This document shows positions 4,214 to 54,254 of a stretch of DNA of 55,124 nucleotides, in pieces. The first letter of the stretch is position 1, and every line of letters starts with the position of its first letter. The stretch comes from a virus. Lineage: Duplodnaviria; Caudoviricetes. The notes beneath the pieces were generated by a model, which ran no database searches, was not told where the DNA came from, and worked only from the letters and a program-made list of their open reading frames with translations. The position numbers were made by a program, and so were the translations under genes. The stretch lies in IMG/VR virus record IMGVR_UViG_3300031470_000001, positions 1-55,124 of that record. One strand, written 5' to 3'.

Positions 4214-4399
4214 GTGACGCGCCGCGTCGAACCGGACGGCGAACTCGCTACCGAGCGAAAGCAGATCGTCGCCACAGTTCGGTGGGTGAGGTCCATTGAG
4301 GAATGGGCCAAGCGTCAGCCTGGCCGGGCTCCTACCTTCTCTGAAGCTGTCCGCGTCTTGGTCGAACAAGCACTCGCCGCTGAGAAGGACACCCCATGA
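4214..4399 (+). CDS. Ribbon-helix-helix transcriptional regulator
   Basis: IEEWAKRQPGRAPTFSEAVRVLVEQAL matches the alphaproteobacterial RHH pattern; ATGA-coupled to next gene; GTG start inferred. Confidence 0.75.
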   Translation: MTRRVEPDGELATERKQIVATVRWVRSIEEWAKRQPGRAPTFSEAVRVLVEQALAAEKDTP

Positions 4400-6681: not shown

Positions 6682-8409
6682 TCAGCGAGTGGTCCAGCTG
6701 ACTCCGTCGCAATAAACGGGGGTGCGCACCGTACCGCCGCCCGTCAGGGCGCCGCGATAGGTCGGCGCTGTCGCGTCGGTAGCGACTGCCATCGTATCCT
6801 GATAAGTCGCGCTGCAGGCCGGAAGTGTCGCCGTCGTAAAGGCCGGAAGCTGCAAAGGTTTAAGTGCCTTGGCCAACACACTCGTGCCGGAAAAGAAATA
6901 ATTCCCTCCCGAAATGAAGCTCATTGTTCCGGCGGCGGAAAAGTCAAACCCCACATTGCCGCCTAGGGAAACCTGCGCGTTCGTCGCGCCTGATTTACCA
7001 CCGGTCAATGTAATGGGGGTGTCGGCTCCGGCGAGTGTACCCGCCTGGAACTGCGTGCCGCCATTTGCGGTTGCCGCAGGAGCCAGTGTCGCACCAGTCC
7101 CCGTCGACGTGAAACCTGCCACCGACGCACCGCTACCCCACTGGATACTCTGACCGGCCGCGAGTGCGAGACAAGCATTGGTGATCGTGGCTGGGGTACA
7201 TTGGATGCCGTTCTGCCAGTAACCACTCATCGTGAGTGGTGACACAGGCGCATTCGCCAAGGTCGATCCGCCGGCGAGATAGGCGAAATACCCGAGAGGC
7301 GTGATGCTGTTCGGTTCCGCCAGGATGCCGTTGTGGAATTTCGGAAAGACACCCGCGGCATTCGCCACGCCCTCGTTGGCGAATAGAAGGCCGAAGAGTG
7401 CGTTGGTGCCGGTGTTGCCCGCAAACCCGCCGCCGCTCGGTACCATCTGGAAAATGCCGGCCCACGTCTGGAGCGCCCCGCGCGTCGCGGCCCAGCCGCG
7501 ATCCGGGCCACGATTGACGATGTTGAGTTCGCTGTTGAAGATGCCCCATTTCGTCGTCGTGTCGGAGCTGGCGGTCGGAGGGGTGACGGCCACGTTCCAG
7601 TTGCCGAAGCCCTGCTGTCCACCAGTCAGGGCCTCCCACTGCGCGATGCTCTGGTCGCCGATGTCGCCGCCGCCCCCCGTCCCGGCACCGGTAGAATGGT
7701 AATAGAGACGTCGCCCCGTGGCGGAGTTCGCCCCTGTGTTGGCGATTACGGTGTACGGCCCGATTTGCCCGCCAGCGGTACTCTGTATCTCCGACGCGTA
7801 GGGGCCGTTAGCCGTGGAATTATGGTCGAAGCGGCTGACGTAGACGACGCCGGGGCCGCTGAACGTCGCGCCGGGGTCGGCCACCACCGTGACGGCACGG
7901 CCTGCGCTTTCGGTGAAGCTGGCGCTCAGAAAATAGTTCCGGCCGCCGCCCGGTGTATAGATCCGCACCGGAGTGTTGATCGGCACTGACGCGGCGGCGC
8001 GTTGAAATGCAGCGAGATCGTCGGTCGAGCCGTCGCCTTTTGCCCCAAAGTCGAGGACATCGACGGTATCGGCGGCGCGGTCCGCCGCCGTCCGCAGTGC
8101 GGTGCCTCCCGTAGCCGTGACCGGCGCCGCCGCGGCCTGAGCCAGCGTGACGCCGCCGATGTTGGCGAGGGTAGCCGATGGACTGGCGAAGTCCGACCCG
8201 TTGTTGGCCTTCTGCGCTGCGCCGATGATGCGGGAATCGTTACCGGCCGCAAGAGTCGTCGCCGTTGTTCCCGAGCCCGTGAACGTGGCCCCGCCAAGCG
8301 TAAGCGTGCTATTCAGCGTCAAGTTCTGGAACGTCGGCGAGGGCGCCGTTTGAGCCGACGCAGTGGCGACCGACAGCAGGCTCGCAAAGAGGGCTATAAT
8401 CAAGCGCAT
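6682..8409 (-). CDS. Tailspike/fibre-like protein with pectate-lyase-3-type beta-helix start and an N-terminal signal peptide
   Basis: VDVLDFGAKGDGSTDDLAAFQRA motif; start at MRLIIALF; located in the fibre region. Confidence 0.8.
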   Translation of the reverse strand: MRLIIALFASLLSVATASAQTAPSPTFQNLTLNSTLTLGGATFTGSGTTATTLAAGNDSRIIGAAQKANNGSDFASPSATLANIGGVTLAQAAAAPVTATGGTALRTAADRAADTVDVLDFGAKGDGSTDDLAAFQRAAASVPINTPVRIYTPGGGRNYFLSASFTESAGRAVTVVADPGATFSGPGVVYVSRFDHNSTANGPYASEIQSTAGGQIGPYTVIANTGANSATGRRLYYHSTGAGTGGGGDIGDQSIAQWEALTGGQQGFGNWNVAVTPPTASSDTTTKWGIFNSELNIVNRGPDRGWAATRGALQTWAGIFQMVPSGGGFAGNTGTNALFGLLFANEGVANAAGVFPKFHNGILAEPNSITPLGYFAYLAGGSTLANAPVSPLTMSGYWQNGIQCTPATITNACLALAAGQSIQWGSGASVAGFTSTGTGATLAPAATANGGTQFQAGTLAGADTPITLTGGKSGATNAQVSLGGNVGFDFSAAGTMSFISGGNYFFSGTSVLAKALKPLQLPAFTTATLPACSATYQDTMAVATDATAPTYRGALTGGGTVRTPVYCDGVSWTTR

Positions 8410-8422
8410 AAAGAACAACCGA

Positions 8423-8722
8423 TCAAGAGATGGAGATGACGCCGCCGTTGTTCCACAGCAGGCCAGACGTTGCGGGTACTGACGTCGGCAGCGTTCCGGG
8501 CGCCAAGTCGGACAGCGCAAGGGTTATGGTCGCACCCATCTTGCCGTTTACCGTCGTGGGGGTTCCCTGCGGTCCGACAATACCCGGCAGTCCCGGAGGC
8601 CCCGGAGGCCCCGGCGTCGTCGAGGCCGCGCCTGTCGCGCCCTGGGGGCCAGCAGGCAACGCCGTCCCGGGAGCGACACCGGGTGCTGATGGGCGCGTGA
8701 CCGTGAGGGGGCCGGTGATCAT
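8423..8722 (-). CDS. Short collagen-like (Gly-X-Y) virion protein
   Basis: GPQGATGAA..PGPPGPPGLPGIVGPQG; C-terminal LWNNGGVISIS. Confidence 0.75.
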   Translation of the reverse strand: MITGPLTVTRPSAPGVAPGTALPAGPQGATGAASTTPGPPGPPGLPGIVGPQGTPTTVNGKMGATITLALSDLAPGTLPTSVPATSGLLWNNGGVISIS

Positions 8723-13219: not shown

Positions 13220-13602
13220 CGGCTGGTCGGGACTTCGAGGGCGATTGAGGCCGTCGTGTTCGACACGGCATTGATATAGTCGATGCGAATCGAACAGAGG
13301 CCGGCGGCATCGGCTTTGAACTGGACCGTGATGACCGGTGCCGGGATGCGGGCCACCGTGGCTTCAAGATAGATTTGCTGGCGCACGATGGCCTTGATGC
13401 CGCGTTCGAGGGCAGTGAGGCCGATGCGTTGCGGCAGACCGGCCCCATAGTCCTGGTGAAAAGTATATCCAGACACAGCCGTGAGTAGACGCCGCTCAAT
13501 ATGATCGTTATCGAGAGTGATGCCATCGACGGTGAGCAAATCACCATCTGGTGTAAGGTCAAAATCTCCTTGCCACTGACACGATAAATCTGGCATGTTC
13601 AT
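13216..13602 (-). CDS. Baseplate wedge/sheath initiator (gpW/gp25-like)
   Basis: GDL...RRLLT...FHQDYGAGL motif; upstream of J. Confidence 0.8.
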   Translation of the reverse strand: MNMPDLSCQWQGDFDLTPDGDLLTVDGITLDNDHIERRLLTAVSGYTFHQDYGAGLPQRIGLTALERGIKAIVRQQIYLEATVARIPAPVITVQFKADAAGLCSIRIDYINAVSNTTASIALEVPTSR

Positions 13603-13648
13603 CCTGATTACGGTATGATCAGTCTGAAAGACTGTAGGGAGAGACTTT

Positions 13649-14278
13649 ATGAAGAACCCACGTATTCGTGACTTAACGAATCAGAGCTTTGGTCGTTGGA
13701 CCGTTGAAGGTCCGGCGGAAAACAGCCGTCCCTTTAAGTGGACCGTCAGATGCCAGTGTGGCTCAAAAAGTGAGATAACGGGCGACAACCTTACCTTGGG
13801 TAAGTCAAAGTCATGCGGATGTTTGTCTGTTGAAATGCTGAAAGCAAGAGCAACACATGGTCACTCTAGACGGGGGGTAAGATCAAGGACTTTCAATGTA
13901 TGGAGAGCGATGCTTCAACGATGCAAAAATCAGAATTGCGCAGCTTATAAAGATTATGGTGGAAGGGGTATTAAGGTTTGCGAAGAGTGGTTAGACTTCT
14001 CCAACTTTTTACATGATATGGGTGAAGCGCCTGGAAATTTACAAATAGACCGGCAGGATAACGATTTAGGATATTTCAAGGGAAACTGCCGCTGGGTTAC
14101 GCCACAACAAAACTCCATGAACAGAAGATCAAACCGTAAATACGAGTTTCAAGGATCCCTACTGACCATTACGGAGGTCAGCGTTCTGACAGGTATTCTG
14201 GTAGGAACTTTGGAGTCGAGAATCAGATACGGATGGACCTTAGAGGCGGCGTTTTCGACCTCGGTCAGATCACGTTGA
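13649..14278 (+). CDS. Free-standing HNH homing endonuclease, antisense insertion
   Basis: FGRWTV, CQCG, KSCGC, YGGRGIKVCEEW, IDRQDNDLGY.KGNCRW; low GC. Confidence 0.9.
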   Translation: MKNPRIRDLTNQSFGRWTVEGPAENSRPFKWTVRCQCGSKSEITGDNLTLGKSKSCGCLSVEMLKARATHGHSRRGVRSRTFNVWRAMLQRCKNQNCAAYKDYGGRGIKVCEEWLDFSNFLHDMGEAPGNLQIDRQDNDLGYFKGNCRWVTPQQNSMNRRSNRKYEFQGSLLTITEVSVLTGILVGTLESRIRYGWTLEAAFSTSVRSR

Positions 14279-14281
14279 CGA

Positions 14282-14512
14282 TCATGAAAGAGGTAACCCG
14301 TCGTTTACAGCTTGTCCCTTGGCGGGGATCAACAACTTCACACCCGCGCTCACTCGGAAATCGGATAGCCCATTCAGATCGGCAATCTGCCACCAGGCAA
14401 GTGCATCCCCGAGTTCGCGAGCGGCGTAGCGGAACAGCGTAGTGATGCCGTCCGTCTCGACGATCTTGGCCGGCAGGCCGGAGCCGATGTAGGGGGTGGA
14501 AGGATCGGCCAT
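14282..14512 (-). CDS. Tail X/LysM-like baseplate protein
   Basis: TLFRYAARELGDALAWWQIADLNGLSD...LLIP. Confidence 0.8.
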   Translation of the reverse strand: MADPSTPYIGSGLPAKIVETDGITTLFRYAARELGDALAWWQIADLNGLSDFRVSAGVKLLIPAKGQAVNDGLPLS

Positions 14513-14515
14513 CGA

Positions 14516-15529
14516 TCAGCCCATAAAGTTTTGCAGCACCGCAAGTTGCGGTTTCTCGGCAGTGCTTGGCTCAACGCCGAAGGCGTAGTCGCCCCACCAT
14601 TGCCCTGCAGCCCAGACACCATAGGCAGCCCACACGTCGCTGTTGTCCGTCATGAACTGCAGCATCGCGGTCGCCTCGACCTGTCCGGCCGGCATAGCGA
14701 AGCCGAACTCTCCGAGGAACAGCCGGAAGCCTTTGGTTCGCGCCCATGCGGTGACGTCGGCCAGCACCGTCGCGCCCTTGCCGGCAGCATATTCCTGCAG
14801 GTGCGATCCCGAGTTGTCGCCGTCGAGGTATTGGTGGACCTCGATCATAAAGTTGGGATCGGTGAAGCCGGCGAACGCCGCGGCGTTGCCTCCCGTGACG
14901 AAGTCGTGCGCACCGTTCCAGCCAGCACCCGGCGCCATGATGGTCTGTTTTGCCCCGGTGACCCGGATTCCGTGGACGCACTTGCGCAGCGTCACCTGCC
15001 AGTCGACCGGCGACCAGGCCGAGGGCTCGTTCATGATGCCGAACATGACGTTGGGGGCGTTGCAGTAGCGTGTCGCCATGCGCCACCAGAAGTTCGGGGC
15101 GTCCTCGACGTCCATCTTAGCCCCGGCGCGCTGCCCGTAGTTATGAGCGTCGAGCACCACCGTCAGCCCCACACCTGCCGCGGTGGCGACAATGCGATCC
15201 AGCGCCGCGATATCGGGGGCGGAGAACTCGCCATGGTTGTGAGGCTGAACCCGCTCGATCAGGAACGGGATGCGGATGAGCTTGATGCCCTTCGCGGCCC
15301 AGGGCGTGATCACCCAATCGTCGGGATAGAGGTAAGTCTGTCCCATCGTGCCGGGCAGTTTGTCCGACGCGAATTCGGCACTGGCGATGTTGACGCCCGG
15401 CAGGGCAATAGGAGTGCGCTTCTTCGGTGCCACAGGCGGGGCCGGCGCTGGAGCCATGATGGCAGCGAGTCGCTGATGCAGCCTAGCGATCTCGGTAGTG
15501 AGAAATTCAGTTTCGGTTTGGATAGGCAT
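14516..15529 (-). CDS. Glycoside hydrolase family 5 (cellulase/endoglucanase-like)
   Basis: GVNIASAEF, IRIPF..ER, LDAHNY, catalytic NEP, EVHQYLD, FLGEFG nucleophile, WAAG; no signal peptide. Confidence 0.92.
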   Translation of the reverse strand: MPIQTETEFLTTEIARLHQRLAAIMAPAPAPPVAPKKRTPIALPGVNIASAEFASDKLPGTMGQTYLYPDDWVITPWAAKGIKLIRIPFLIERVQPHNHGEFSAPDIAALDRIVATAAGVGLTVVLDAHNYGQRAGAKMDVEDAPNFWWRMATRYCNAPNVMFGIMNEPSAWSPVDWQVTLRKCVHGIRVTGAKQTIMAPGAGWNGAHDFVTGGNAAAFAGFTDPNFMIEVHQYLDGDNSGSHLQEYAAGKGATVLADVTAWARTKGFRLFLGEFGFAMPAGQVEATAMLQFMTDNSDVWAAYGVWAAGQWWGDYAFGVEPSTAEKPQLAVLQNFMG

Positions 15530-15538
15530 GATAATCCT

Positions 15539-17644
15539 TTACGGTGCCACGGTCTTGTAGGGATGACCGGTCGGCAGCAGCGATCCGTCGCCTGTCGCGG
15601 ACCACGCCATTTTGCCCTCGACGTACTGGCGGTTAGCCACGGTGGGAGAACCGTTCAGCACGGTTAACCCAGCGTAGTCGCCGAAGATCTCGCTGACATC
15701 GGGGGAGACCGCTCGGCTGATGCCGAGCACGGGGGCTGAGCCGACAGTACTCATGGCAATTGACGAGCCGACCACGACGCCGTTTACCCAGAGCTGTATC
15801 TGGCCCGCCGTGCAGATGGCGGCGATCAGCATGGGGGTGTCGTGCGTCAGGGGGGCAGTCCCTCCTAGCACGGTTGTAGAGATAGTAAACGTGGCTCGAT
15901 TGGTAGTGGGTACCTCAATAAAGAACCCTCCCGCCTGGTAATCGAGATTACCGCCGCTGGCGAAGGATATGATGCGGCCGTTGTCGTTGCGGTCGTTGTT
16001 GACGCTGGCGGTGAGGAACACCGCGAAATCCTGCTTGCCGGCCAGCTCCGGGATGTTGCCGAACAGCCGAGCATAAGCACCCGCGGTGGCGTTGCCCCCA
16101 GGCACCGTGTCCCCGTTGACCGACCGGATCGCCGGGCGGGCCGCGCCGAAGGTGGACGCCGTAACGAAGATGGGACCCTGTGTGCCGTCCGGCGCGAGCG
16201 CATTCGTGGAACCTGCGGTGTCGGCAACGGACGTGATGCGACCAGTTCCCACCGGGTTCGGCAGCATCCGGGCAGAGGTGGTGAAGTCGAAGTCGCGGAG
16301 GATGCCGGGAACCGTCTCTAGGCTGGTAGGAGCTGTTACCACCTTGGTGGTAATGGCGACCGGCGTCGAGGCCGGGCTTGTGAGGCCGTAGCGTGAGGCC
16401 TTAAAGGTGAGCGAATAGGCGGTTCCTGGGGTGAGCGTCGTGATACCGCCGGCCGGCAACGGATTATAGGTCGTCCCGTCCGTCGCATAGGTGAGCGTCA
16501 CGAAGAATTGTGGATCAATCGCAACTTTGACGAGCCCCTGCTGCGCCTCCGTCACCTGGACCGGGCCACCATGATAGGTGGGCGCGGCCGGTGCGGTCGG
16601 ACCCTGATCGTAAGCGTCGAGCAGGGTGTTGTGGTAGTCGGCTAGGGGTTGAGTAGCAACCAAGGGCTTCAGGCATTGCCAGTTGCCGCCCGCCGCCTTG
16701 GTGAACGTAAATGTCGAGTTCGTGGTGCTGAACGCCATGTTGCCGGGGATCAGGCTGAAGTTGCCGTTCAATCCGGCCGCGAGCGCCACTGCCATAGGGT
16801 CCCAGCCGGCGCGCGTGCGGCGCGTCGCGGTATCGACAATCGAAGGGCTGTTGTTCGTCTGAAAAAAGTCATGAGCCTTCTTCAGTGGGTTCGATGCCGA
16901 AGCCGATGAAAGCAGTGGCCCGAAGAAGGTATTCTGCCCGAGGTTAGTGTCCACGACCCAAACCGGCATGTTCATGGCGTTCCATGAATTGACGACGGAA
17001 AGAGAGTCGGCGTTCACGAAGCCGTAGTTGAAGTCGTTGGCGCCAGTAAACACCGTAGCTGTGGAATTCGGGTCGAAACCGCCGAGCGCAACCGTCGTGA
17101 CGCGCAGCACTTTGGCCTGAAACAGCGCCGTTCCGGTGCGTGGATCGATGCTGTCGGCGGGGGATTGCAACAGGTCGTAGATATCCGGCACCGGGCCGAT
17201 GCAGGCCACGATGACAGATTGGTCCGGGGCTGCGGCGAGCGCCGTCCGCATCGTCGGCACAGGATCAGGATAGCTCGCCCTTCCCGTCGTGTAGCCGTAG
17301 AACGACGCCAGCCCCGCGTCCATGTAGTCCGACTGAGCGACATCGCTTGCCTTGCGGGATGCCACCGGGATCGATGTCAGGCCGGCATAGTCGAGCAGGA
17401 TGCGATCGGCGGACGGGGCGGTATCGGTCGAGGGCGACGTGATGATCGCGACGAGGATGATCTTGCCCTGCTTGTGCAGCACGGTGCCGATAGCTGCAGC
17501 CGTGGCATCGTCGACGTCCTGGCCAGGATCGGTCGAGATGATGACGCGGGGAACAACGGACGGTGCAACGGCAAGAAGCCCATGCCGCAGTCCAGGCATG
17601 CTGAACTTACCCGTCCCGTTGGGGTCGAACCACATCGGCGACAT
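15539..17644 (-). CDS. Nucleoside-hydrolase-fold domain fused to a linker and a C-terminal LamG/ConA-like domain
   Basis: RVIISTDPGQDVDD, CIGP, WDPMAV; C-terminal beta-sandwich (IQLWVNG...RQYVEGKMAW...LPTGHPYK). Confidence 0.75.
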   Translation of the reverse strand: MSPMWFDPNGTGKFSMPGLRHGLLAVAPSVVPRVIISTDPGQDVDDATAAAIGTVLHKQGKIILVAIITSPSTDTAPSADRILLDYAGLTSIPVASRKASDVAQSDYMDAGLASFYGYTTGRASYPDPVPTMRTALAAAPDQSVIVACIGPVPDIYDLLQSPADSIDPRTGTALFQAKVLRVTTVALGGFDPNSTATVFTGANDFNYGFVNADSLSVVNSWNAMNMPVWVVDTNLGQNTFFGPLLSSASASNPLKKAHDFFQTNNSPSIVDTATRRTRAGWDPMAVALAAGLNGNFSLIPGNMAFSTTNSTFTFTKAAGGNWQCLKPLVATQPLADYHNTLLDAYDQGPTAPAAPTYHGGPVQVTEAQQGLVKVAIDPQFFVTLTYATDGTTYNPLPAGGITTLTPGTAYSLTFKASRYGLTSPASTPVAITTKVVTAPTSLETVPGILRDFDFTTSARMLPNPVGTGRITSVADTAGSTNALAPDGTQGPIFVTASTFGAARPAIRSVNGDTVPGGNATAGAYARLFGNIPELAGKQDFAVFLTASVNNDRNDNGRIISFASGGNLDYQAGGFFIEVPTTNRATFTISTTVLGGTAPLTHDTPMLIAAICTAGQIQLWVNGVVVGSSIAMSTVGSAPVLGISRAVSPDVSEIFGDYAGLTVLNGSPTVANRQYVEGKMAWSATGDGSLLPTGHPYKTVAP

Positions 17645-17646
17645 GG

Positions 17647-18648
17647 TCAGAATTCTCGGGCGTAATAGGCTTGTCCAGTCGTCGCTCCGATGATGCTGAC
17701 GGCGCCGGGTCCGACATGGGTGGACGTCGTCTCATAGAGGGAACCGGCCGGGATCTTGAGGCTGTGATAATCGATCGTCGCCGTCGTCATCGCGTTGATG
17801 TAGATGTCGCCCGTCGATTGGTTCTGCACCGAATAGCCGCGCCGCGCCGCATTGGCGGCCATGAGCTGTTGCGCAGTGCCGCCTGCCGTGATGGTGCCGC
17901 CACGGTCGGTCGCCGTGGCTTTGATGACAGTGTCGGTCGGGCCGCTGTTGGGGCTGATCGCCACCACGAGCGCAGTGTCGATTGCAACTGGCGCCGTTGA
18001 CGCCGACTTGATGGCAACCGCGTTCGTGCCGTCGCTTAGCTTGGTCAGCCAGGGCGTCGTATTCGCGGTGTTGCCGGGTTGGACGGTCCAGGTGCCCGAT
18101 TGGGTGACACCCCCGATGACATTCGAACCGGTCGCCAGCGCACCGGAAATTACCGTCCTCAGGTTCCCGGACAGATCGAGCGATAGAGGGTTAGAGCCGG
18201 CCGTGTAGGTCGGAGCAGCGTTTGAGGCAGTACCGCTCGTGGTCGCCGTGATCGACCCAGAGACGACTGTTCTCAGGTTGCCAGCCAGATCGACCGAAAG
18301 AGGCTGCGAGCCCGCCGAATATGTCGGCGGGGCCGCGGACGCCGTGGCACTTGTCGTTGCCGTAATCGAACCCGAGATGGGGACGGGCGTGCCGCCTGCG
18401 ACACCCTGCATGGACAACACGTCAGCTGAGGAAGCGCCCGCAGTGCCGAGCGCCGGCTGCTTGGCGGCGGTTGCCGCCGCGCCCAACGTGCCAAAGTTGG
18501 CCGTGACGGTCCCAGAAACCGGAACCGCGGATTGATCGCTAGCGATGACGACAGGTAGTGAAGACGCTCCTAAAGCCTGCCCTCCGGGCGGCAACGTGTT
18601 GACGGTTGTACCGATGCCGGACGTAACGGTAAGTGTCGGAAGGGCCAT
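17647..18648 (-). CDS. Ala/Thr/Gly-rich virion structural protein with an internal tandem repeat
   Basis: SLPVVIASDQ motif; two 38-aa repeats; C-terminal RRGYSVQN domain. Confidence 0.7.
   Translation of the reverse strand: MALPTLTVTSGIGTTVNTLPPGGQALGASSLPVVIASDQSAVPVSGTVTANFGTLGAAATAAKQPALGTAGASSADVLSMQGVAGGTPVPISGSITATTSATASAAPPTYSAGSQPLSVDLAGNLRTVVSGSITATTSGTASNAAPTYTAGSNPLSLDLSGNLRTVISGALATGSNVIGGVTQSGTWTVQPGNTANTTPWLTKLSDGTNAVAIKSASTAPVAIDTALVVAISPNSGPTDTVIKATATDRGGTITAGGTAQQLMAANAARRGYSVQNQSTGDIYINAMTTATIDYHSLKIPAGSLYETTSTHVGPGAVSIIGATTGQAYYAREF
18148..18375 (-). repeat. Two tandem 114-bp (38-aa) repeats
   Basis: SGSITATTSATASAAPPTYSAGSQPLSVDLAGNLRTVV / SGSITATTSGTASNAAPTYTAGSNPLSLDLSGNLRTVI. 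Confidence 0.85.
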
Positions 18649-18660
18649 GGTGGAGTGTCC

Positions 18661-19155
18661 CTATGCGGCTATGGCGGCGACCAAACCGCTGTTGGACGCA
18701 AGAGTGAAATCGGCTGCGGGAGCCGGGATAGTTGGCAGAACAACGACCGGTGCCGGTATGGGCGCCGGCTGAACAGGAATGGTCGGAATCGCCAGAGGGG
18801 CAGGAAGAGACCCATTCTGAGATGGAGGCCTCGTTAATGCCGTGCCGGACGCCACGGCGAGGTTGAACACTGCGCGTCCGACCGTGCCCCGCATATCGGC
18901 GAGCGTGGCCTGGTCATAGGCGGCCGTGGCGAGGCCAAGTAGCGCGTTGACAAGATCGCCAGCGTATCCGGCTGGGTCGAGAGCGTCGAGGCCACCCACG
19001 GCCCCCGCAAGACCAGTATCGATCTCCGACACGAGCGCGAGGCCCGCCGACACCAAGGCGGCCTTGCGCAGCGGCGTAGCGGTCTTGATCGGGGCTGCGG
19101 CCTGGACCGATGCCGATAGCAGCGCGAGGTCTGATGTGATTTGCGCCGGGATCAT
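18661..19155 (-). CDS. Tail/baseplate-associated hypothetical protein with Pro-rich C-terminus
   Basis: Start MIPAQITSD; co-oriented in the baseplate module. Confidence 0.65.
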   Translation of the reverse strand: MIPAQITSDLALLSASVQAAAPIKTATPLRKAALVSAGLALVSEIDTGLAGAVGGLDALDPAGYAGDLVNALLGLATAAYDQATLADMRGTVGRAVFNLAVASGTALTRPPSQNGSLPAPLAIPTIPVQPAPIPAPVVVLPTIPAPAADFTLASNSGLVAAIAA

Positions 19156-19172
19156 GCGTGGCCGATGCCGCC

Positions 19173-19640
19173 TTACCCGAGAGGAGTCGAATTCGCGACG
19201 TTGTCGACCGCGACAGCACTCGCGCCACCAAGATCGGAACCGATCAGGCTGTCGATCGACGACACGGCAGCGCCCAATCCGCCAGGATTGTCGACGGGCG
19301 TCAGGGTCAGCGACGAATGGATCACGTTGGGGAACTTCTCCACCTTCCAAGTGTGCGACGCGATGACGACGATGCGGGCTTCCATGCCGTTCGAATAGGG
19401 GTAAGGCAGTCCCGAAATCCGCATCTGGTCCAGCAGCAGGACATCGTCGGCCGAACCCGAGCCGACGTGCAGCACCTCGAATGAACGATCGTCGTCATCC
19501 GGCCCCATGGCATCGATGATGCGGTCCCCGCCCGGCAGTTTATGGATGCGAAGCTGTTGCTTGCCGCCACCGGGAAGCGTCTCGGGTACGGCGAAGTCGG
19601 TGAACAGGAAGGGTCCGAGCGCGAGGACGTCGTTGGGCAC
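19173..19640 (-). CDS. Phage tail protein (P2 gpU-like tube initiator)
   Basis: LGPF.F.DFAVPE.LP.GG.Q.L.IHKLPGG.R.IDAMG. Confidence 0.75.
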   Translation of the reverse strand: MPNDVLALGPFLFTDFAVPETLPGGGKQQLRIHKLPGGDRIIDAMGPDDDDRSFEVLHVGSGSADDVLLLDQMRISGLPYPYSNGMEARIVVIASHTWKVEKFPNVIHSSLTLTPVDNPGGLGAAVSSIDSLIGSDLGGASAVAVDNVANSTPLG

Positions 19641-19643
19641 GGG

Positions 19644-20225
19644 TCAGCCGATCTTCGCCATGACGTTCTGTGCCGTCCCGTTGACGGTTTTGACGAGATC
19701 GAAATTGCCGCCTTGTTCGGGATCGCCGCCGTAATAGGCATTCTTGCCCGTGGCCGGCTTCATGCTGATCCTGCCATCGGCGTGATGCTTGGTCTGGGAA
19801 CCGCTCTGGCCGATCACGGTCACGCTCTTGTCGGCCGCAAAGAAAACCTTGTTACCGCTTTCGTGCTGTAGCAGCATCTCGCCGGACTGTACGACAGGAG
19901 GCTTGTCCGTATTCGAGAACTGCCGGTGGTGCGCCACGAGAGTGTCGGGATCACCGCCGTCGAAATGAAGATCGAAGACCTGACCGTCGAGCTTCTGCGC
20001 ATCCCCGACGCGAGGACCGACCGCGATACCAAAGCCGTTGCCGACATGAAGAGCGGCGACGGGTATCCACCCGCTTTCGATCCCGTGGGGCTGGATGATG
20101 CCCTTCACGGCATGCGTCTGCGGATTGAAGGCCGTACAGACGAGCGTCCCCTTGAACTGCGAGCGGCCCATCACCTCTTGCGCGATGCGGCGGATATGGT
20201 TCGTCAGTTCGTCCATGTCGGTCAT
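19644..20225 (-). CDS. Baseplate spike (gpV/gp45-like)
   Basis: OB-fold with ESGWIP..ALHVGNGFG; beta-strand C-terminus. Confidence 0.82.
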   Translation of the reverse strand: MTDMDELTNHIRRIAQEVMGRSQFKGTLVCTAFNPQTHAVKGIIQPHGIESGWIPVAALHVGNGFGIAVGPRVGDAQKLDGQVFDLHFDGGDPDTLVAHHRQFSNTDKPPVVQSGEMLLQHESGNKVFFAADKSVTVIGQSGSQTKHHADGRISMKPATGKNAYYGGDPEQGGNFDLVKTVNGTAQNVMAKIG

Positions 20226-21364
20226 AAGTGTAAGTGGATGGTGCCACCCTGCCCGTTGGGAACAGTCGAGAACTGCGTCGCGCCGGTATCGTCGGAACCG
20301 TCCCGTCCGGACTTGGCGATCTTACCTGAAACGCTCATTTCGGAACCGGACTCCCGTGCAATCGTCAACTCGACGCTATCCACGTCGTAAAGCTGGTCGA
20401 AGATCGTGCTCGTGCCCGAGAGGCTCATCTTCTGCCTCGGCGTGACAGAAAGATCGGCCGGGGCCTTCACCACCACGCTGCAGTCGTGCCGGATCGCCTC
20501 CTTGAGGCGAGACTTCTTCAGCTTGTCGACCTGGGCCTGATTACGCCCGTTGTGGTGATGCTCGATTTCCACGGTAGGACCGACGCCACCCGACTGAGCG
20601 ACCCCGTCGTACTTTTTTGCGTCCTTGTGGTGCCATGACCGTACCGCGAGGCTATGCGGACGCGCCGCCGTCATGTTGCGATGCGTTTCAAGGTCGGTGC
20701 ATGTCGCGACTCCGACCTGGCCTTGTCCGTCGGGCGGAATCCACTGGACGTTGAAGGTCCCCGCATCGGTACCTTTCGGCTCGAAATAGAGCGTCGTTCC
20801 GTCGACATACCATCGGAACCCTTCGCGATCGGCGAGCCGCGACAGGATCTCATGATCGGAGAGGTTCAGCACGAGATGGTTCGTGTCGACGTCATAGAGT
20901 TTGCCGGCGAAATCCTCGGTCGCCTGAACCGCGGCCATGAGACCGTGATCCTGAGCGATCGTCGAGACGACATCACCGGATTTTTGGTTCTTGAACTGCT
21001 GAGAGCGGCGCTTTTCGGTGAGAGATCCCGATTTGTCCCGACCCGACACCGTGACGGTGCATTCGCCCCAATGGATATGCGGTTCGTCGATCTGTCCCGT
21101 GATGACGGAAACGGGATCGCTCCCGTCGAGAGACATCAGGATCTCGACGTCCGTTGGCTGATAGTCGGCCCATTCCGCATAGCCGAAGCCGGCCGAAGCC
21201 GTTTCGTCGACCGACAACTCGGCTTCGAACCTGTCGGCCTGCCGCTCCGATTTCCGCGTCACCGTGGCGGAGATGCACGGCAGTCTGGCACCGTTGAGCA
21301 AAAGCCAGACGCGGGGCGTCCGCACGGTGCTTCCCGCGCCGGCACTGGCGTCGATGTAGCTCAC
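20222..21364 (-). CDS. Baseplate hub (late control D/gp44-like)
   Basis: VSGRDKS..L, LADREGF.WYVDGT.LYF; follows the tape measure gene. Confidence 0.85.
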   Translation of the reverse strand: MSYIDASAGAGSTVRTPRVWLLLNGARLPCISATVTRKSERQADRFEAELSVDETASAGFGYAEWADYQPTDVEILMSLDGSDPVSVITGQIDEPHIHWGECTVTVSGRDKSGSLTEKRRSQQFKNQKSGDVVSTIAQDHGLMAAVQATEDFAGKLYDVDTNHLVLNLSDHEILSRLADREGFRWYVDGTTLYFEPKGTDAGTFNVQWIPPDGQGQVGVATCTDLETHRNMTAARPHSLAVRSWHHKDAKKYDGVAQSGGVGPTVEIEHHHNGRNQAQVDKLKKSRLKEAIRHDCSVVVKAPADLSVTPRQKMSLSGTSTIFDQLYDVDSVELTIARESGSEMSVSGKIAKSGRDGSDDTGATQFSTVPNGQGGTIHLHL

Positions 21365-24300
21365 GCGGCATCCGTCACTGGCGTCCCCGGCGAGACGTAG
21401 TGGCTGTGGGGGTCGGGACCGCCCATGTTGCCGGGGTGCCGCATGGCCATGGCCTGATGTTTGGTCACGGTCTTTGTCAGAACCTTACCGTCGAGCAGAT
21501 GCGTGAGATGGACCTCGACCGGTGGCATATTCATCGCCGTCGTCATAGCCCCGCCCGCCGGCACGCCGGGACTCACCTTACGGGGCGGAGGAGCCGAGAC
21601 GGTGGCGGCGGGTCGGCCAGCCGATACCGTGGCGCCGCGGTGCGAATAGGCATCGAGGGCGGCACGCTCATAGGCGTGGCGGCTACCATAAGCCTTGACA
21701 CCGGCCCCTTCGAATGACCGCTCGAAACCTTCGAGGCTCCCGCCTGCCTTCAGGCCCGCAACGCTACCTGCGTAGCGACCTGCCAGCTCGTGCTTGAGGA
21801 AGCCGTAGTTGGCTTCGTCGGAATGTGGATCCAGATGGTTCGCGGCAGACCAATCACGAAATCCGTGATTGCGTGAACCGGTCCATTGCGCCCAACCGAT
21901 CCCGCCACCGCCACCGACCTCGTTGAACGCCTTGAACCCCATCGACTCGTGACCGAGGTTGCCCATGATCTTCGCGGCCATCGGCGCGTCGAGGCTGAAA
22001 TCTCCCATCAGCCGCGACATGATCTCGGGGGACTTCTGCGCAAAGCTTCCCCCAGCGGAAAACCGGCTGACCGGACCATCGACAAGTGACCCGCTGGATC
22101 CGCTGTACGGCTTTCCGTAGCGAATGGACGGCATGGACCGGGCCGAATCTCCTCCCGTGCCGCCAACATAGGCATTTGATGCACCATGACCGGAGCCATG
22201 GATACCTGACGAGCCCGAACCGCCTCCGGTGCTGTCCCAGGTCGTATAGGCGGCTTGCGTGAAGCCCGAGCCGATGCCGACGTCACCGGCCCCGGCACCA
22301 GATCCGCCGCCGAACAGGCCATAGACCTTGGCGGTCGCCGCATCGAGCGCGGCCGAAAACGACGCCAACGCACCGGTTATGCCGGTCGCCCGCGTATTCA
22401 GCCCGTCGAACGACGTCTGGACGATGCCGGTGGACGTGGTGAGCTGGCCGAATTGCCAGACGTTCAGCTCTTCCTGCTTTTGCAGCAGCCCGAGGCCTGC
22501 GGTCGCGCGCTCGATCGCTCCTGACATGTCGATGCCAGCCGGGACTCCAAGCCTTCCGGCAATGGCCGCAGAAGCCTGTCCGGTGATGCCGGAAGGGTTG
22601 AGACCTGGGATCGTCGCTCCCTCTGCCGCATGGGCACCCATATCGAATGGATTATGGTCTTTCCAATAGTGGCGAATCGCATCGCCCATCGCGCCCTCTC
22701 GCTTGAGAGCCGGATCGACAGGGGCGTTGTCTGTCTCCGCCTTCTTCAAGACGTCCGGCATATCCTTCCCAAGCTCATAAAGCTGAAACATCGTCAGGGC
22801 GGCACGCGGGAGAAGATTGGTGTATCCCGGAGAAGTGCCGCCGGGTCCTGCCCCTCCACCACCCGGAAGAGCACGCCCACTCAAAGCCGCCGCAGCCTCT
22901 TTCAAAGCCAATGCGGATGCATCGAGCGCCGTAGCCGCGCCCGACAAAGCAGCACCTCCGCCACCAAAGCCGAGCATTCGTGCGGCGCCATAGCCGGTCA
23001 GCCCGAGTGCCGCGACGCCGGCTCCCATCGCCCCCACCTTCGTGAGGTCGGGATGAGCTTCCATGGCCTGAGCGAAAGCGTTGATGCCTGCGGTCAAGCC
23101 TGTCAGGCCCGCAATGGCAGGATCAACAAGCCCGGTGCCAAGTGCAGTAAGAAAATCCTCGGTCTTCTTATGCAGGGCGTCGAGTTTCAACACCGGATCT
23201 TTGTTCTGAAGGATGTCTACGGCATTGTCAGGCACGGCGTCGCGGAGAGCCATATCCTTGACAATCTGCATGCGGGTTGCTGGCTCTAAAAGACCTCGCA
23301 TCATCATAGTGGTCGACTTGTTCGAGCCGATGCCGTTAATGACCTGGTTGACCGCCTTTTGATTGTGTGTATCGACACCGTGAGCTTTGAGCTTATCGAG
23401 GACCCCTCCGGACCAATCCCAGATATTTTCTGACATACCCTCAGCGAATTGGCTGTTAGGATCAAGATGCCATTGGCTTTTTGAGTCTTGCCAGACCTTA
23501 CCGCTCGCTAAATCCTGATCAACAAGACCATACTTTACAAGATTTGCGACAGATTTAGAAGTAATGATGCCAGCCGCATAAGAGCGGTTAGCCATATAGT
23601 CAGCGTTACCTAGCTTTGAGTGCTTCATTACTGATCCGAGGATTGGCGCCACGACAGTCGCCATCCGCATATCCCAGTTCTGGGCCGCACCGCCGGAGTT
23701 GTTCGTCATGGCGTAGAATGAGGAACCATCCGTAACGCCACGCTCTGACAACATGGTTTTGAACAGCTCACTCATCATCGCCTTGGTGTTCTTCTCTCTC
23801 TCCTCGTTTGTGCCGCGCTGAGTGACGCCAGTCTCCTCCAAGCCCTTCGCAAGTTCGAATACCTGCTTGCCGCTGCTAAACTTGCTGTGAATACCTTCCG
23901 ACTTGACCGACTGCAGACCAGTCATGATGTTGTTGAAGGCCGGGAGAAAAGTGATAGCCTCGTCGAGCGTCGGCTTTTTTCCATTGAACTCTGGGAAGAC
24001 CTTGATCATCTCGTAGAGGCGGCCGATGTTCTCCGTCGCCGACGTGTTTTGGTTCTGAGCCGCGTTGGCCCACGCGGACTTGCTTGCCTTCTGAACCTCG
24101 GATTGACTGAATCCGGCGGCCTCGAATTGGGTTTCCCAATGACGGAAATCGAAAGCCTTACCGAGCGCATCTTTCAGGATTTCACCCGTCAAGATGCCGC
24201 TGACCAGTGGTACCATGCCGTCGCCGCCTTGGCTGGCGCCCAGACTCCCGCCTGGAATCGCCACGTGATGAGGGCGAAGGTGGAAACCGCCATGGGCCTT

Positions 24301-25065
24301 GTTATGAGGGGACGCAGGATTGCGGGGGACGATCGGGGTGAGACCGCTACCTGAAACAGGGACTACACCAGTCGCAGCTGCGGCAGCGCCTGACGAGCGC
24401 GCCGCTACGGCCGCAGCCTCGGTGCTCAGGCCCTGCATCTCGGCGACCGATGCCTTTATCGCTTCGTTGATGCGGCCGATGCTGCCTATAGCTTCCTCGG
24501 CTGCGGCCGTGGCCGCGCTAGCGATTGGCTGGAACAGTTCCGGTGCCTCCGCGCCGATGCCCCGCAAGGCTTCGATCGCGCCCGTCGCCGTCGCCCGCAT
24601 CTCGGCGAGAACGTCCGACTGCATCGCCACCGTCGCCGTCAGAACTCCACCGAGCGCCTCCGGTGCCGCTGCGCCGATGCCCTGCATCTCCGCGATGGCG
24701 CCTGTCTTTAACCCCTTCATGGCCTCGACGACTTCGCCGGAAAGACCGCTCGCGAAGGTGCCGATTTCACCGAACGAGGCCTTAGCGCCTTTCGTCATCT
24801 CGCCGAAGACGGCCCCGGTGTCCGGCCCGAGCCGAGCCATGGACTTGATGACCTTGTCAACCCCTGCGGACGAGATCTTGCTGATCTCCTCCCACTGACT
24901 TTCCATCTTCGTGACGACAGCGCCCAACCCGAGCTTGTCGAGCGTGCCTTGTAGGCCAACGGCTTTCTTCTCCGCGCTCTCAAGCCCGCCAATAAGGCGG
25001 CGCAAGGGACCGTCGAACTCATCAACGAGGCGGAAGACGGCGCCTGTACTGAAAGTCTCGTTCAA
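21361..25065 (-). CDS. Tape measure protein with C-terminal tail-lysozyme domain
   Basis: 1234-aa Ala/Gly helical protein; IMGNLGHES...GIGWAQWTGSR lysozyme motif. Confidence 0.9.
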   Translation of the reverse strand: MNETFSTGAVFRLVDEFDGPLRRLIGGLESAEKKAVGLQGTLDKLGLGAVVTKMESQWEEISKISSAGVDKVIKSMARLGPDTGAVFGEMTKGAKASFGEIGTFASGLSGEVVEAMKGLKTGAIAEMQGIGAAAPEALGGVLTATVAMQSDVLAEMRATATGAIEALRGIGAEAPELFQPIASAATAAAEEAIGSIGRINEAIKASVAEMQGLSTEAAAVAARSSGAAAAATGVVPVSGSGLTPIVPRNPASPHNKAHGGFHLRPHHVAIPGGSLGASQGGDGMVPLVSGILTGEILKDALGKAFDFRHWETQFEAAGFSQSEVQKASKSAWANAAQNQNTSATENIGRLYEMIKVFPEFNGKKPTLDEAITFLPAFNNIMTGLQSVKSEGIHSKFSSGKQVFELAKGLEETGVTQRGTNEEREKNTKAMMSELFKTMLSERGVTDGSSFYAMTNNSGGAAQNWDMRMATVVAPILGSVMKHSKLGNADYMANRSYAAGIITSKSVANLVKYGLVDQDLASGKVWQDSKSQWHLDPNSQFAEGMSENIWDWSGGVLDKLKAHGVDTHNQKAVNQVINGIGSNKSTTMMMRGLLEPATRMQIVKDMALRDAVPDNAVDILQNKDPVLKLDALHKKTEDFLTALGTGLVDPAIAGLTGLTAGINAFAQAMEAHPDLTKVGAMGAGVAALGLTGYGAARMLGFGGGGAALSGAATALDASALALKEAAAALSGRALPGGGGAGPGGTSPGYTNLLPRAALTMFQLYELGKDMPDVLKKAETDNAPVDPALKREGAMGDAIRHYWKDHNPFDMGAHAAEGATIPGLNPSGITGQASAAIAGRLGVPAGIDMSGAIERATAGLGLLQKQEELNVWQFGQLTTSTGIVQTSFDGLNTRATGITGALASFSAALDAATAKVYGLFGGGSGAGAGDVGIGSGFTQAAYTTWDSTGGGSGSSGIHGSGHGASNAYVGGTGGDSARSMPSIRYGKPYSGSSGSLVDGPVSRFSAGGSFAQKSPEIMSRLMGDFSLDAPMAAKIMGNLGHESMGFKAFNEVGGGGGIGWAQWTGSRNHGFRDWSAANHLDPHSDEANYGFLKHELAGRYAGSVAGLKAGGSLEGFERSFEGAGVKAYGSRHAYERAALDAYSHRGATVSAGRPAATVSAPPPRKVSPGVPAGGAMTTAMNMPPVEVHLTHLLDGKVLTKTVTKHQAMAMRHPGNMGGPDPHSHYVSPGTPVTDAA

Positions 25066-26484: not shown

Positions 26485-27432
26485 TTAGTCAGGTAGTCTT
26501 TCAACCAACTTTTCATGCAAGCGATGAAGATCAACATTGCAGAGGAGCAAGGCTATTTCCTCGAATCGGCTACCGAGCGCGTCCTCTAACGCTGCAATCA
26601 CCTCAGCGACTTCGACGTCGAGGATCTTGTGGCGCTGTTGCCGATCCGAAAGCGGCCTTCCTGGCTTGGTTTCGGACGCGCGAGGCTGAGAGCGTTCGGC
26701 CTTCATCGCCTCGACCTTGGCCACCTGTTCGTCGGCCGGAACCGCAGCGACCTTCAGCAGAGCGGACTGGTTCTTCTCAAGGCCCGCGACGCGGGCCGCC
26801 TGCTTGGCCTCGGGCGAGATGGCGTCGATTTTACGCGCCCGTCGAACCTCTCTGCGGTCCACCGCGAATTCCTTCGCAGCGGCACTGATGCCGGCATCGT
26901 TAGGCTGTGCGCCTCCTGGCTTCGAAGGGTGGGCAGATTTGCCCACCCTGGGAGTAGAAGCCCTACCGCCCTTCGAAGCCAAAGAAGATCCTATTGGCCC
27001 GATTTGAGATGCAGGAAGCCGCTCAACGTCTGCGACAGCGTCTTGAACCTGCTTAAGGTGCTCCTCCCCATGCTCTTGAAAAAGACGTATCCACTCAGCG
27101 AGGTGCTGAGACCGTTCCAGGACCGTCAATTCCGCGCGATGAAGATTTTCGGCGATCTCCCAAAGGCGATAGTCGATCTCGTCACCCTCAACGACATTAA
27201 TGAGGATCTTGTCCCATCCCAGCCGGCGGGCCGCCTCAAGGCGGTGTCGGCCGGCGACAAGGACGACATCATCACCGTCTCCAATGATGCGAACCTGGAT
27301 CGGGGTCATCTGCCCGATCTTTTTGAACGACTCCATCATGTCGAGCACACGCTGCTCGTCCATGTGGCGGAGCCGATCGGGGATCGTAACCAACTCCGCT
27401 TCGTGCTTCTCCGACCGCTGTACCGTGAGCAT
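26485..27432 (-). CDS. ParB N-terminal domain protein with HTH (orphan)
   Basis: SFKKIGQMTPIQV, LVAGRHRLEA, EIAENLHRAELT.LER; start could extend to 27525. Confidence 0.85.
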   Translation of the reverse strand: MLTVQRSEKHEAELVTIPDRLRHMDEQRVLDMMESFKKIGQMTPIQVRIIGDGDDVVLVAGRHRLEAARRLGWDKILINVVEGDEIDYRLWEIAENLHRAELTVLERSQHLAEWIRLFQEHGEEHLKQVQDAVADVERLPASQIGPIGSSLASKGGRASTPRVGKSAHPSKPGGAQPNDAGISAAAKEFAVDRREVRRARKIDAISPEAKQAARVAGLEKNQSALLKVAAVPADEQVAKVEAMKAERSQPRASETKPGRPLSDRQQRHKILDVEVAEVIAALEDALGSRFEEIALLLCNVDLHRLHEKLVERLPD

Positions 27433-27588
27433 CACTGCACCTTCGGGAAGGGCTCGGCGCCGGCCGCTTCGCTGGTCTGCCAACGCAGGTAGTTCGGGTG
27501 CTTCCCAGAGAAATGCGCGTTCCACGCCTTGATCGCGAGAGCCGCGATCTCGATGCCGGGTAGCTTCCGGCGATCGTGCGGGGCCATC

Positions 27589-53888: not shown

Positions 53889-54169
53889 ACCGTCGCTCCC
53901 GCGGGCTCGGGGGCGGGCTGGGCGGGGTCGGCGGGGGCGGCGGGGGCTGGGCGGGCAATCTCAATCGGCCACTCGACATCTGCAGGCCAGTTTTCAGAGA
54001 ACCACAACATGGCGCGCTCGAAGCGGCTCAATTGGATGTCCTTGCCGTCCGCCAAGGCTTGCAGCTTTCGCGTGTCCTCAAACACGCGCCAGCTCACGAT
54101 TGATCGCGTCGTTTCCTCGGCTACCCGGTAGGCTTCGGCAACTGTGAGAAGGGCTTCTTTTCCGGTCAT
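53885..54169 (-). CDS. Cro-like regulator
   Basis: LL.VAEAY...VSWRVFED..KL..L..G.DI...RFERAMLWFSENWP; divergent from cI. Confidence 0.8.
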   Translation of the reverse strand: MTGKEALLTVAEAYRVAEETTRSIVSWRVFEDTRKLQALADGKDIQLSRFERAMLWFSENWPADVEWPIEIARPAPAAPADPAQPAPEPAGATV

Positions 54170-54175
54170 GCTCCT

Positions 54176-54252: not shown

Positions 54253-54254
54253 GG

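Follow-up and report, generated by a model that had tools for sequence, protein, structure and literature searches.

A glucanase- and lectin-bearing accessory cassette in a variable slot of a phage baseplate operon

A variable slot between the gpU-like and X-like genes

The virus record IMGVR_UViG_3300031470_000001 (Duplodnaviria; Caudoviricetes) was analyzed over positions 1 to 55,124, the whole stretch of 55,124 nucleotides being referred to here as the window, and the analysis centered on a block of four minus-strand genes that lies between a gpU-like and a tail X-like gene in the baseplate operon. The block encodes a protein with a Pro-rich tail, a fibre-like protein, a protein that joins a nucleoside-hydrolase (NH) fold to a LamG-type lectin, and a GH5 glucanase. 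The first-pass annotation of this DNA had described four co-oriented and tightly packed genes at this place, and all four open reading frames (ORFs) were confirmed, with gaps of 17, 12, 2, 9 and 3 nt from the gpU-like gene through the X-like gene. The features of the region, in the direction of the minus strand, are as follows:

19173-19640, minus strand: gpU-like flank of the baseplate/tube-initiator type, 155 aa (phrog_21362 positions 3-146 of 321, E 2e-19)
18661-19155, minus strand: Pro-tailed gene, 164 aa
18830-19155, minus strand: 'mid', backbone codons 1-109 of the Pro-tailed gene, which stand alone as a 109-aa gene where the site is empty
18661-18829, minus strand: 55-residue Pro-rich extension (codons 110-164), cassette-borne and in frame with 'mid'
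14515-18829, minus strand: accessory cassette, 4,315 bp, delimited by blastn of the empty-site phages L006 and L009 against the window
17647-18648, minus strand: fibre-like protein, 333 aa, with a conserved N-terminal part of ~54 aa, a shaft and a C-terminal jelly-roll knob (residues ~240-333)
15539-17644, minus strand: NH-fold/LamG protein, 701 aa
16595-17557, minus strand: NH-fold domain of the 701-aa protein, residues ~30-350 (VIA, Foldseek)
16334-16582, minus strand: middle beta-rich domain, residues ~355-437 (model strands, pLDDT 60-83)
15542-16333, minus strand: ConA/LamG-like lectin domain, residues ~438-701 (VIA Z ~16)
14516-15529, minus strand: GH5 glucanase, 337 aa, with an N-terminal helix and Pro/Ala linker (residues 1 to ~44) followed by a (beta/alpha)8 catalytic domain
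14282-14512, minus strand: LysM/tail-X-like flank, 76 aa (phrog_28233, E 1.1e-10; phrog_21362 positions 270-316 of 321)

When L006 and L009 were compared with the window by blastn, homology ended at 18830 and restarted at 14514, and the empty sites hold 16 nt there, made up of a stop codon and a spacer, so that the cassette occupies 14515-18829 in place of these 16 nt. This shows that the cassette is an insertion between the backbone gene 'mid' and the X-like gene. Its start coincides with the 'mid' stop codon, and 'mid' is lengthened by 55 residues. The Pro-tailed gene, which had been counted as a member of the block, therefore belongs to it in part, with codons 110-164 lying in the cassette and codons 1-109 being backbone.

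The slot was surveyed in 10 distinct contigs of the close lineage that cover the region (gpU-like protein 69-97% identical). The variable enzyme slot that the first-pass annotation had proposed to look for in related phages was found at this exact position, empty in four contigs (L006, L009, L010 and L011), where a 'mid' gene of ~100-109 aa is followed directly by the X-like gene, and filled in the other six. The cargo of the window consists of the fibre-like, 701-aa and GH5 genes, that of L001 and L002 of the fibre-like and 701-aa genes without GH5, and that of L008 of a 134-aa short fibre-like form, a 62%-identical 701-type gene, GH5 and an extra 92-aa ORF; L007 and L182 are filled, and their contigs end inside the cassette. 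GH5 is thus optional, being present in two of the four complete filled contigs. The Pro-rich tail tracks the cassette, as it is present in all six filled contigs (the window, L001, L002, L007, L008 and, by tblastn with residues 1-164, L182) and absent from the four empty ones. The record holding L009 is 100% complete according to CheckV and lacks the fibre-like (rep333) and NH proteins, indicating that the cassette is dispensable. All parts of it are under purifying selection, with dN/dS values of 0.07-0.30 against the close relative L001. No cargo between U and X was met outside the window lineage.

Two further observations concern the contents of the slot. The extra ORF of L008 (13508-13786, plus strand) encodes a 92-aa Cys-containing product of no known family and lies between GH5 and the X-like gene. 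A contig from run X2 joins 15408 to 18839, so bringing 'mid' codon ~106 within 5 letters of GH5 codon ~41, a joint that is in frame by count and would fuse 'mid' to GH5, skipping the fibre-like and 701-aa genes; it is possibly spurious, since the shorter side has 24 letters (likeness threshold 88).

The names given to the flanking genes, 'gpU-like' and 'tail X', are supported at sub-threshold level only. The 155-aa protein matches one end of phrog_21362 and the 76-aa protein the other, and distant homologues point the same way, but their Pfam scores fall below the cut-offs: homologues of the gpU-like flank reached 24.5, 18.6, 15.3 and 13.0 bits against 27.5 for PF06995 (Phage_P2_GpU; best E 2.3e-5), and one homologue of the X-like flank reached 20.8 bits against 20.9 for PF01476 (LysM). 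The 155-aa window protein itself has no PF06995 match and the 76-aa protein no Pfam match. On the minus strand of 14282-19640, no promoter-like and no terminator-like site was found. The GC content of the block (0.633), which the first-pass annotation had called host-like, is near that of the whole window (0.620), so that its composition is phage-like and gives no foreign mark.

Proteins encoded by the cassette

The 701-aa protein consists of a leader of ~30 residues, the NH-fold domain, a beta-rich middle, the ConA/LamG lectin and a conserved C-terminal motif. The proposed nucleoside-hydrolase/LamG fusion was confirmed by fold, as the NH domain aligned with 12 nucleoside hydrolases at VIA Z scores of 27.0 (4p5f, XopQ) to 23.6, with an rmsd of ~3 A over 263-288 residues, and was matched by Foldseek at E 2e-11 with a probability of 1.0, the model having a pLDDT mostly of 85-97. 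The 701-aa protein gave no PF01156 match at E<=1, and neither its sequence nor its family profile had a significant match among solved structures (best E 0.037-0.8). PF01156 was matched by two of nine close family members (best E 3.6e-9) and at E<=1e-5 by 43 of 78 remoter representatives, the best-scoring of which lie well above the 34.2-bit cut-off. Across the nine close sequences D39, G41, Q42, D43, D45, D46 and D282 are invariant, and an acidic residue and N206 sit in 'NDFN' in the family alignment of these sequences; compared with the nucleoside hydrolase chain 4kpn, the Asp motif has a 2-residue insertion in the HMMER alignment. We take the DxDxxxDD-type N-terminal motif and the later Asp to be the Ca/ribose-binding cluster of IU nucleoside hydrolases, and the conserved Asp cluster and later Asp-Pro suggest that a Ca/ribose-type site may be intact.

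The middle domain is possibly Ig/FN3-like, and some relatives carry Ig_3 or fn3 at that place. The lectin domain (residues ~440-685) aligned with domain 4 of AbnA (5hon, VIA Z 16.1), with the tailspike of cyanopodophage Pan3 (9vyh_q, 15.7) and with a sialidase lectin domain (15.4), and carries the C-terminal motif RQ.VEG..AW...GDGSLLP.GHPYK. Its match to the Pfam family Laminin_G_3 (PF13385) is sub-threshold (18 bits against a cut-off of 27.6), and three of the nine relatives match weakly. These nine relatives came from a word-indexed search; an exhaustive search reached 1,343 representatives at E<=1e-3, of which 237 passed <=1e-10 and 6 passed <=1e-30, the NH domain accounting for most of the matches. 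A domain scan of the 78 best representatives from the exhaustive search found Laminin_G_3 in 14, before or after the NH domain, and Ig, fn3, Big, Cadherin-like, Malectin, CE2_N, sialidase-lectin and PG-binding domains among the other partners, which is, to judge from these domain assignments, the company of extracellular carbohydrate-active proteins.

The only match among deposited phages was gp338 of Tunturiibacter phage Tunturi_5 (PP885688.1), annotated as a 'virion structural protein'. A full-length NH-LamG homologue of 745 aa follows U-like, X-like and D-like genes in L120, where a lysozyme-like stretch similar to that of the window's tape measure was also seen directly upstream, and the homologue in L003 closes a late operon after the tape measure, a D-like gene and lysis genes. 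The NH and middle domains are missing in L004, L028 and P0250, which keep a leader of ~20-24 residues and the LamG domain; in P0250 residues 1-24 are 92% identical and LamG follows directly. The architecture is therefore a leader, an optional enzyme and a lectin. A joint arrival of the window LamG and GH5 was considered and rejected, the window LamG being nearer to that of the GH5-less L001 (84-96% per segment) than to that of L004 (77-87%). No report of a nucleoside-hydrolase fold in a phage tail module was found in the open-access literature searched.

The identification of the last cassette gene as GH5 was upheld by PF00150, which scored 134.3 bits (cut-off 23.5, E 7.6e-39) over profile positions 7-271 of 272. 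Its closest solved relatives are 5hpc and 4w7u, each named 'Cellulase' (E 7e-53), followed by endoglucanases, the first mannanase appearing at E 2.4e-7. Residues N167-E168-P169 (NEP) and E274 (GEF) are invariant in an 18-sequence alignment and were aligned to 5hpc and 4w7u; E168 is presumably the acid/base and E274 the nucleophile of GH5. In a phage clade (the window, P0130, P0131, P0132 and P0134) the N-terminus is a conserved amphipathic helix followed by a linker, Pro/Ala or Pro/Glu in composition, whose length varies, whereas cellular relatives start with a hydrophobic, partly twin-arginine-like leader. This agrees with the earlier remark that none of the four block proteins has a signal peptide, which held by inspection. 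Methylobacterium homologues are 47-48% identical in the alignment. Against L008, L004 and L028, the catalytic part had a dN/dS of 0.10-0.12 and the N-terminus one of 0.12-0.25.

Close copies of GH5 (at least 84% identity) stand directly after a LamG-motif gene in four of four contexts, which are the hub slot in the window and L008 and, in L004 and L028, the far end of the tail-fibre cluster, ahead of the lysis genes. Since L028 shares its contig with the empty slot of L009, the LamG and GH5 payload can occupy either of two places in similar phages. Three metagenomic proteins (P0254, P0292 and P0309) carry GH5 and the same LamG module in one chain, a hint from domain fusion that lectin and GH5 work together. 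Seven unrelated viral GH5 loci were inspected, of which four lie beside tail or virion genes. In one unrelated viral contig, L031 (4091-7981, plus strand), a gene with neck/head genes on one side and the tail sheath gene on the other encodes a product of 1,296 aa in which two stretches are GH5-like.

The 333-aa protein, which is 54% Ala/Gly/Ser/Thr, had been described as a repeat scaffold. A repeat does exist, but it is one 38-aa unit in two copies (residues 92-167 of the shaft, 24 of 30 positions identical in the best window), and Tandem Repeats Finder detected no DNA-level repeat for it; the unit is single in the relative P0011, and L008 has the 134-aa short form. A contig from run X2 joins 17913 to 18519, omitting 605 nt of the shaft (residue ~43 to ~245), and this skip resembles the L008 form, so that the shaft length appears polymorphic. 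In the AF2 model pLDDT exceeded 95 only at residues 240-333, which form a jelly-roll, and residues 237-331 match phrog_22789 (E 1.2e-15). The knob gave VIA Z scores of 8-9 against the receptor-binding domain of the PM2 spike P1, Bacillus Ena pili and cupins. The protein has 1,098 homologues. Searched with Foldseek against a viral structure library, the knob had 162 matches at E<=0.001, and the named ones among the matches listed are uncharacterised phage proteins. Knob genes were also located in 80 diverse viral loci with a 10-sequence alignment, a 120-protein alignment being too diverse, and in all 17 of the loci inspected they lie among portal, head, neck, baseplate, tail, packaging or fibre genes, which makes a structural role of the knob-domain protein likely on grounds of gene neighborhood. 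On the unrelated viral contig L147 (3271-6363, plus strand), found from the LamG side, a gene whose 513-aa product is similar to the fibre-like protein (58% identity over the N-terminal 54 residues of the latter, similar-looking C-terminus) precedes two LamG-type genes that share the C-terminal motif.

The remaining product, 'mid' with its tail, has no Pfam or PHROG match. L006 and L009 encode an identical 109-aa protein ending in GTALTR and a stop codon, and the versions of L010 and L011 are 47-49% identical. The backbone part has a dN/dS of 0.09 and the tail one of 0.18-0.21. The tail is made up of a Pro-rich stretch, with a linker of variable length, and a conserved hydrophobic C-terminal peptide. 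A complex prediction for the tail (residues 100-164) and the first 95 residues of the 333-aa protein scored 0.00 against a mark of 0.32; run without controls, it carries no weight either way.

The phage around the cassette

The minus strand of the window encodes a primase, small and large terminase subunits, portal, scaffold, major head protein and adaptors, followed by tail genes that continue with a 1,234-aa tape measure, a gpD-like hub (PF05954, E 4.1e-8) and a 193-aa protein in the position of the spike, and further by gpW-like, gpJ (PF04865) and gpI-position proteins, fibre genes, a candidate beta-helix tail protein and an endolysin. The order of the baseplate operon is tape measure, gpD-like hub, spike-like, gpU-like, 'mid', the slot, LysM/X, gpW-like and gpJ. 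The plus strand has a repressor-like gene at 54144-54965 (phrog_4) and the records of related phages carry a provirus classification, so that this contractile-tailed phage is probably temperate. A 695-aa protein (29989-32076, minus strand) is a putative sheath whose identity rests on distant homologues, which match the tail sheath family phrog_23 at E 2e-44 to 2e-48; it has no counterpart among solved sequences. Against the sheaths of distant relatives, which have ~500 aa, its alignment falls into two parts (residues 1-158 and ~324-680), which points to an extra insertion domain of ~165 residues.

DNA 88-99% alike to the window was found only in runs labelled as rock metagenome, four of which were aligned to it. 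No deposited phage has DNA similarity to the window, and scans of species-representative genomes with the 701-aa family alignment or with gpJ gave no relative. Among named cellular proteins, those nearest to GH5 come from Methylobacterium (49-51% BLASTP identity), as do named homologues of the knob protein.

Several other features of the window were recorded. Near its C-terminus, the tape measure of 1,234 aa (21361-25065, minus strand) carries a domain of the 'phage tail lysozyme' type (PF18013, residues 1015-1132, E 2.8e-13). Two ParB-like genes are present, at 26485-27525 (minus strand) and 4396-5226 (plus strand), the former in mid tail block, with the tube/sheath region on one side and the tape measure on the other. 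A 612-aa tail protein (6682-8520, minus strand; phrog_18522) has an N-terminal pectate-lyase-like match (PF12708, 26 bits against a cut-off of 27), and from this match the same phage may have a beta-helix depolymerase of the classical type as well. On the opposite strand, a free-standing HNH homing-endonuclease gene (13649-14278, plus strand; phrog_374, E 2.4e-63) separates the X-like gene from the gpW-like one. Its GC content is 0.46, that of the window being 0.62, and a promoter-like site of its own lies at 13590-13619. The seven related contigs that include this junction (L001, L002, L006, L008, L009, L010 and L011) all lack it there, and a contig from run X3 spans 13453 to 14360 without it; runs X2 and X4, in which this stretch is uncovered, were not counted. 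The distant relatives L012-L025 (U 35-43% identical) have the order tape measure, U (or U fused to 'mid'), X, gpD-like and spike-position, whereas the window lineage (region 19173-21364) has tape measure, gpD-like, spike-position, gpU-like, 'mid' and X.

Possible roles of the cassette and comparison with known systems

Given the position of the cassette and the folds of its products, we read it as an optional mobile accessory module for glycan binding and cutting that would be made with the baseplate and ride on the virion, and we hold the chances for and against this to be about even. Virion attachment of the proteins is plausible. The cassette products would be made late together with the baseplate and carried on the virion, with the Pro-rich tail, the short conserved N-terminal leaders or both acting as tethers. 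The LamG lectin would hold a host surface or matrix polysaccharide while GH5 would cut chains of the beta-1,4-glucan type, and the NH-fold domain, with its putative Ca site, would cut a ribosyl-type or other glycosidic bond. Such lectin-guided cleavage at adsorption would allow the baseplate to reach the outer membrane, and by this mechanism glycan specificity would be added or changed without touching essential baseplate genes. The first-pass annotation had proposed a virion-displayed or lysis-released appendage, and the variable slot, the tracking of the tail (6 of 6 against 0 of 4) and the relatives near tail and hub genes lend that proposal partial support. A further-reaching version, in which the NH-fold domain is a new class of virion-borne glycosidase (acting, for example, on ribofuranosyl or furanosyl links) and the hub protein with its polyproline-like tether mounts the knob fibre and the lectin-guided enzymes, the payload being swappable between the hub site and the end of the tail-fibre cluster, we regard as unlikely.

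A number of findings weigh against carriage on the virion. None of the four proteins has a recognisable virion-anchor domain, and the leaders have just ~20-45 residues. The fold match of the knob is weak, its Z of 8-9 lying within the 'common' range of the tool, and some knob relatives (P0012, P0014, P0015 and P0031) start with a Sec-type signal peptide, so that the family may also include secreted bacterial proteins. A general association between knob fibres and the LamG-motif type was tried and rejected, as none of 78 knob loci had the motif while the positive control gave 52 of 61. The combination of NH and LamG is also found in bacterial chromosomes, for example in a Kiritimatiellota protein named 'nucleoside hydrolase', and the architecture is therefore not phage-specific. 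Among the seven unrelated viral GH5 loci, two are in metabolic or replication contexts and one is mixed. The position of the L003 homologue after lysis genes fits cargo or lysis-time enzymes equally well.

The main rival, which fits the lysis-gene neighborhood in other phages, is that the cassette encodes soluble enzymes released at lysis, made late and acting outside the virion, with LamG targeting a matrix glycan and the biofilm loosened for the spread of progeny. LamG, GH5 or NH genes adjoin endolysin or holin genes in L004, L028 and L003, the lack of signal peptides (judged by inspection) means that release would need lysis, and the absence of recognisable anchor domains and the free-standing, single-domain look of GH5 are consistent with soluble enzymes. 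This explanation leaves unaccounted for, however, the in-frame Pro-rich tail on a hub-cluster protein and the fibre-like protein with a knob, relatives of which are encoded in blocks of structural genes, and in the window lineage the cassette belongs to the baseplate operon and is ~11 kb away from the endolysin gene. We consider lysis release a possibility, though a rather unlikely one.

It is also conceivable, if improbable, that the products are hub-associated proteins packed in or at the tail tip that enter the periplasm with the tape measure and cut periplasmic or nascent glucans, comparable to the cutting of murein by the tape-measure lysozyme domain. Their position among hub, spike and tube-initiator genes would suit ejection, as would the adjacency of the NH-LamG gene to U/X/D genes in L120 and the tail-lysozyme domain of the tape measure (E 2.8e-13). 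Yet a three-domain lectin protein of 701 aa and a knobbed fibre-like protein look external, the same LamG and GH5 pair is found in the tail-fibre gene cluster of sister phages, and the searches made gave no precedent.

A quite improbable alternative is that the NH domain acts on a nucleotide-derived molecule, such as nucleosides, NAD/ADP-ribose-type compounds or defence signals, and that the cassette serves partly in counter-defence or nucleotide salvage. Among the fold matches XopQ, in complex with ADP-ribose, ranks first (Z 27.0, level with true nucleosidases), the Asp cluster of the ribose/Ca-site type is conserved, and phage nucleoside hydrolases have been reported among nucleotide-metabolism genes, not in a tail module (PMC4591317 and PMC9228384). 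Set against this are the fusion of the NH domain to a beta-sandwich and a lectin, the Ig, fn3, Big, Malectin, CE2_N and sialidase-lectin domains of its relatives, and a location in the late tail operon rather than among early genes. The least probable reading is that the cassette is auxiliary metabolic gene (AMG) or lysogenic-conversion cargo serving host carbon or nucleoside metabolism, for although soil viral GH5 genes have been read as carbon-cycling AMGs, one encoding an active endomannanase (PMC6786970), two of the seven unrelated viral GH5 loci have metabolic or replication genes around them and the relatives are classed as proviruses, the cassette sits mid-way in a late structural operon with no promoter, terminator or export signal of its own, and the phage GH5 has lost the leader of its cellular homologues, so that a lysogen could not secrete it.

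Should the virion-borne glycan module be confirmed, the sister phages with empty, three-gene and four-gene slots would constitute a natural experiment on adding glycan functions, and the short leaders and Pro-rich tether could be used as portable docking parts for engineering phage host range in harmless environmental hosts. The NH fold with lectin modules would be a candidate class of carbohydrate-active enzymes with 1,343 representatives at E<=1e-3. The result would also bear on whether viral carbohydrate-active enzymes of soil and rock are AMGs or infection machinery, the context here favouring the latter. The points of most interest are the substrate of the NH domain and the possible role of the tether on the hub protein as a payload mount.

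Tail-associated polysaccharide depolymerases, or tailspikes, are typically of the beta-helix type and decide which surface polysaccharide a phage can pass. Like them, the cassette places glycan-binding and glycan-cutting proteins in the tail module and is exchanged as a unit between related phages. It differs in its folds, which are a GH5 (beta/alpha)8 barrel and an NH fold with a ConA/LamG lectin, in that the enzymes are separate small proteins with short leaders only, and in its place between hub genes, with an in-frame tether, instead of at the fibre locus. No beta-helix appeared in the models or fold lists of the 701-aa and 333-aa proteins, the shaft of the latter lacking a confident model. 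The insertion site, between gpU-like and LysM/X-like genes with a gpD-like hub nearby, resembles the U/X/D set of phage P2; we take P2 gpU, gpX and gpD and the gp43-type protein of Mu to be hub proteins and liken them to the flanks of the cassette.

GH5 'auxiliary metabolic genes' of soil viromes have been described, one of them shown to be active (PMC6786970), and a recent preprint argues that many viral carbohydrate-active enzymes serve core viral functions and leaves cellulase-type families unclassified (bioRxiv 10.1101/2024.12.20.629349). The window shares with the soil cases a viral contig from a terrestrial community and intact catalytic residues, but here GH5 lies in a baseplate operon, its leader is replaced by a helix and linker, and a LamG gene always precedes it; together these features point to infection, and not to the carbon metabolism of the host, as its field of action. 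In the single-chain GH5 and LamG giants P0254, P0292 and P0309 (980-1198 aa), the same LamG module with its motif stands at the C-terminus (31-37% identity to residues 402-701), but the upstream GH5 belongs to another clade (~25% identity) and is in one chain with the lectin.

The NH domain shares with the PF01156 superfamily, including the type III effector XopQ, its fold, and its N-terminal Asp cluster and later Asp-Pro are conserved in the close family. It differs from these enzymes in that the 701-aa protein does not reach PF01156, has a 2-residue insertion in the Asp motif, is fused to beta-sandwich and lectin domains and is encoded in a phage tail operon. Tunturi_5 gp338, which lies between annotated tail-fiber genes, is 29% identical to NH-like domain residues 23-182 (E 1e-9); it belongs to a jumbo phage of Acidobacteriota and has the NH-like domain in the second half of a 602-aa protein. 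To speak of an undescribed system, for which the first-pass annotation took this block as its best candidate, is too strong, given that GH5 in viral tail modules recurs, NH and LamG architectures are common and single-chain GH5 and LamG giants exist. The closest known kind is a tail-associated depolymerase or receptor-binding cassette, here as a bounded mobile cassette with an empty-site counterpart, and its newest element is the nucleoside-hydrolase fold in a tail module.

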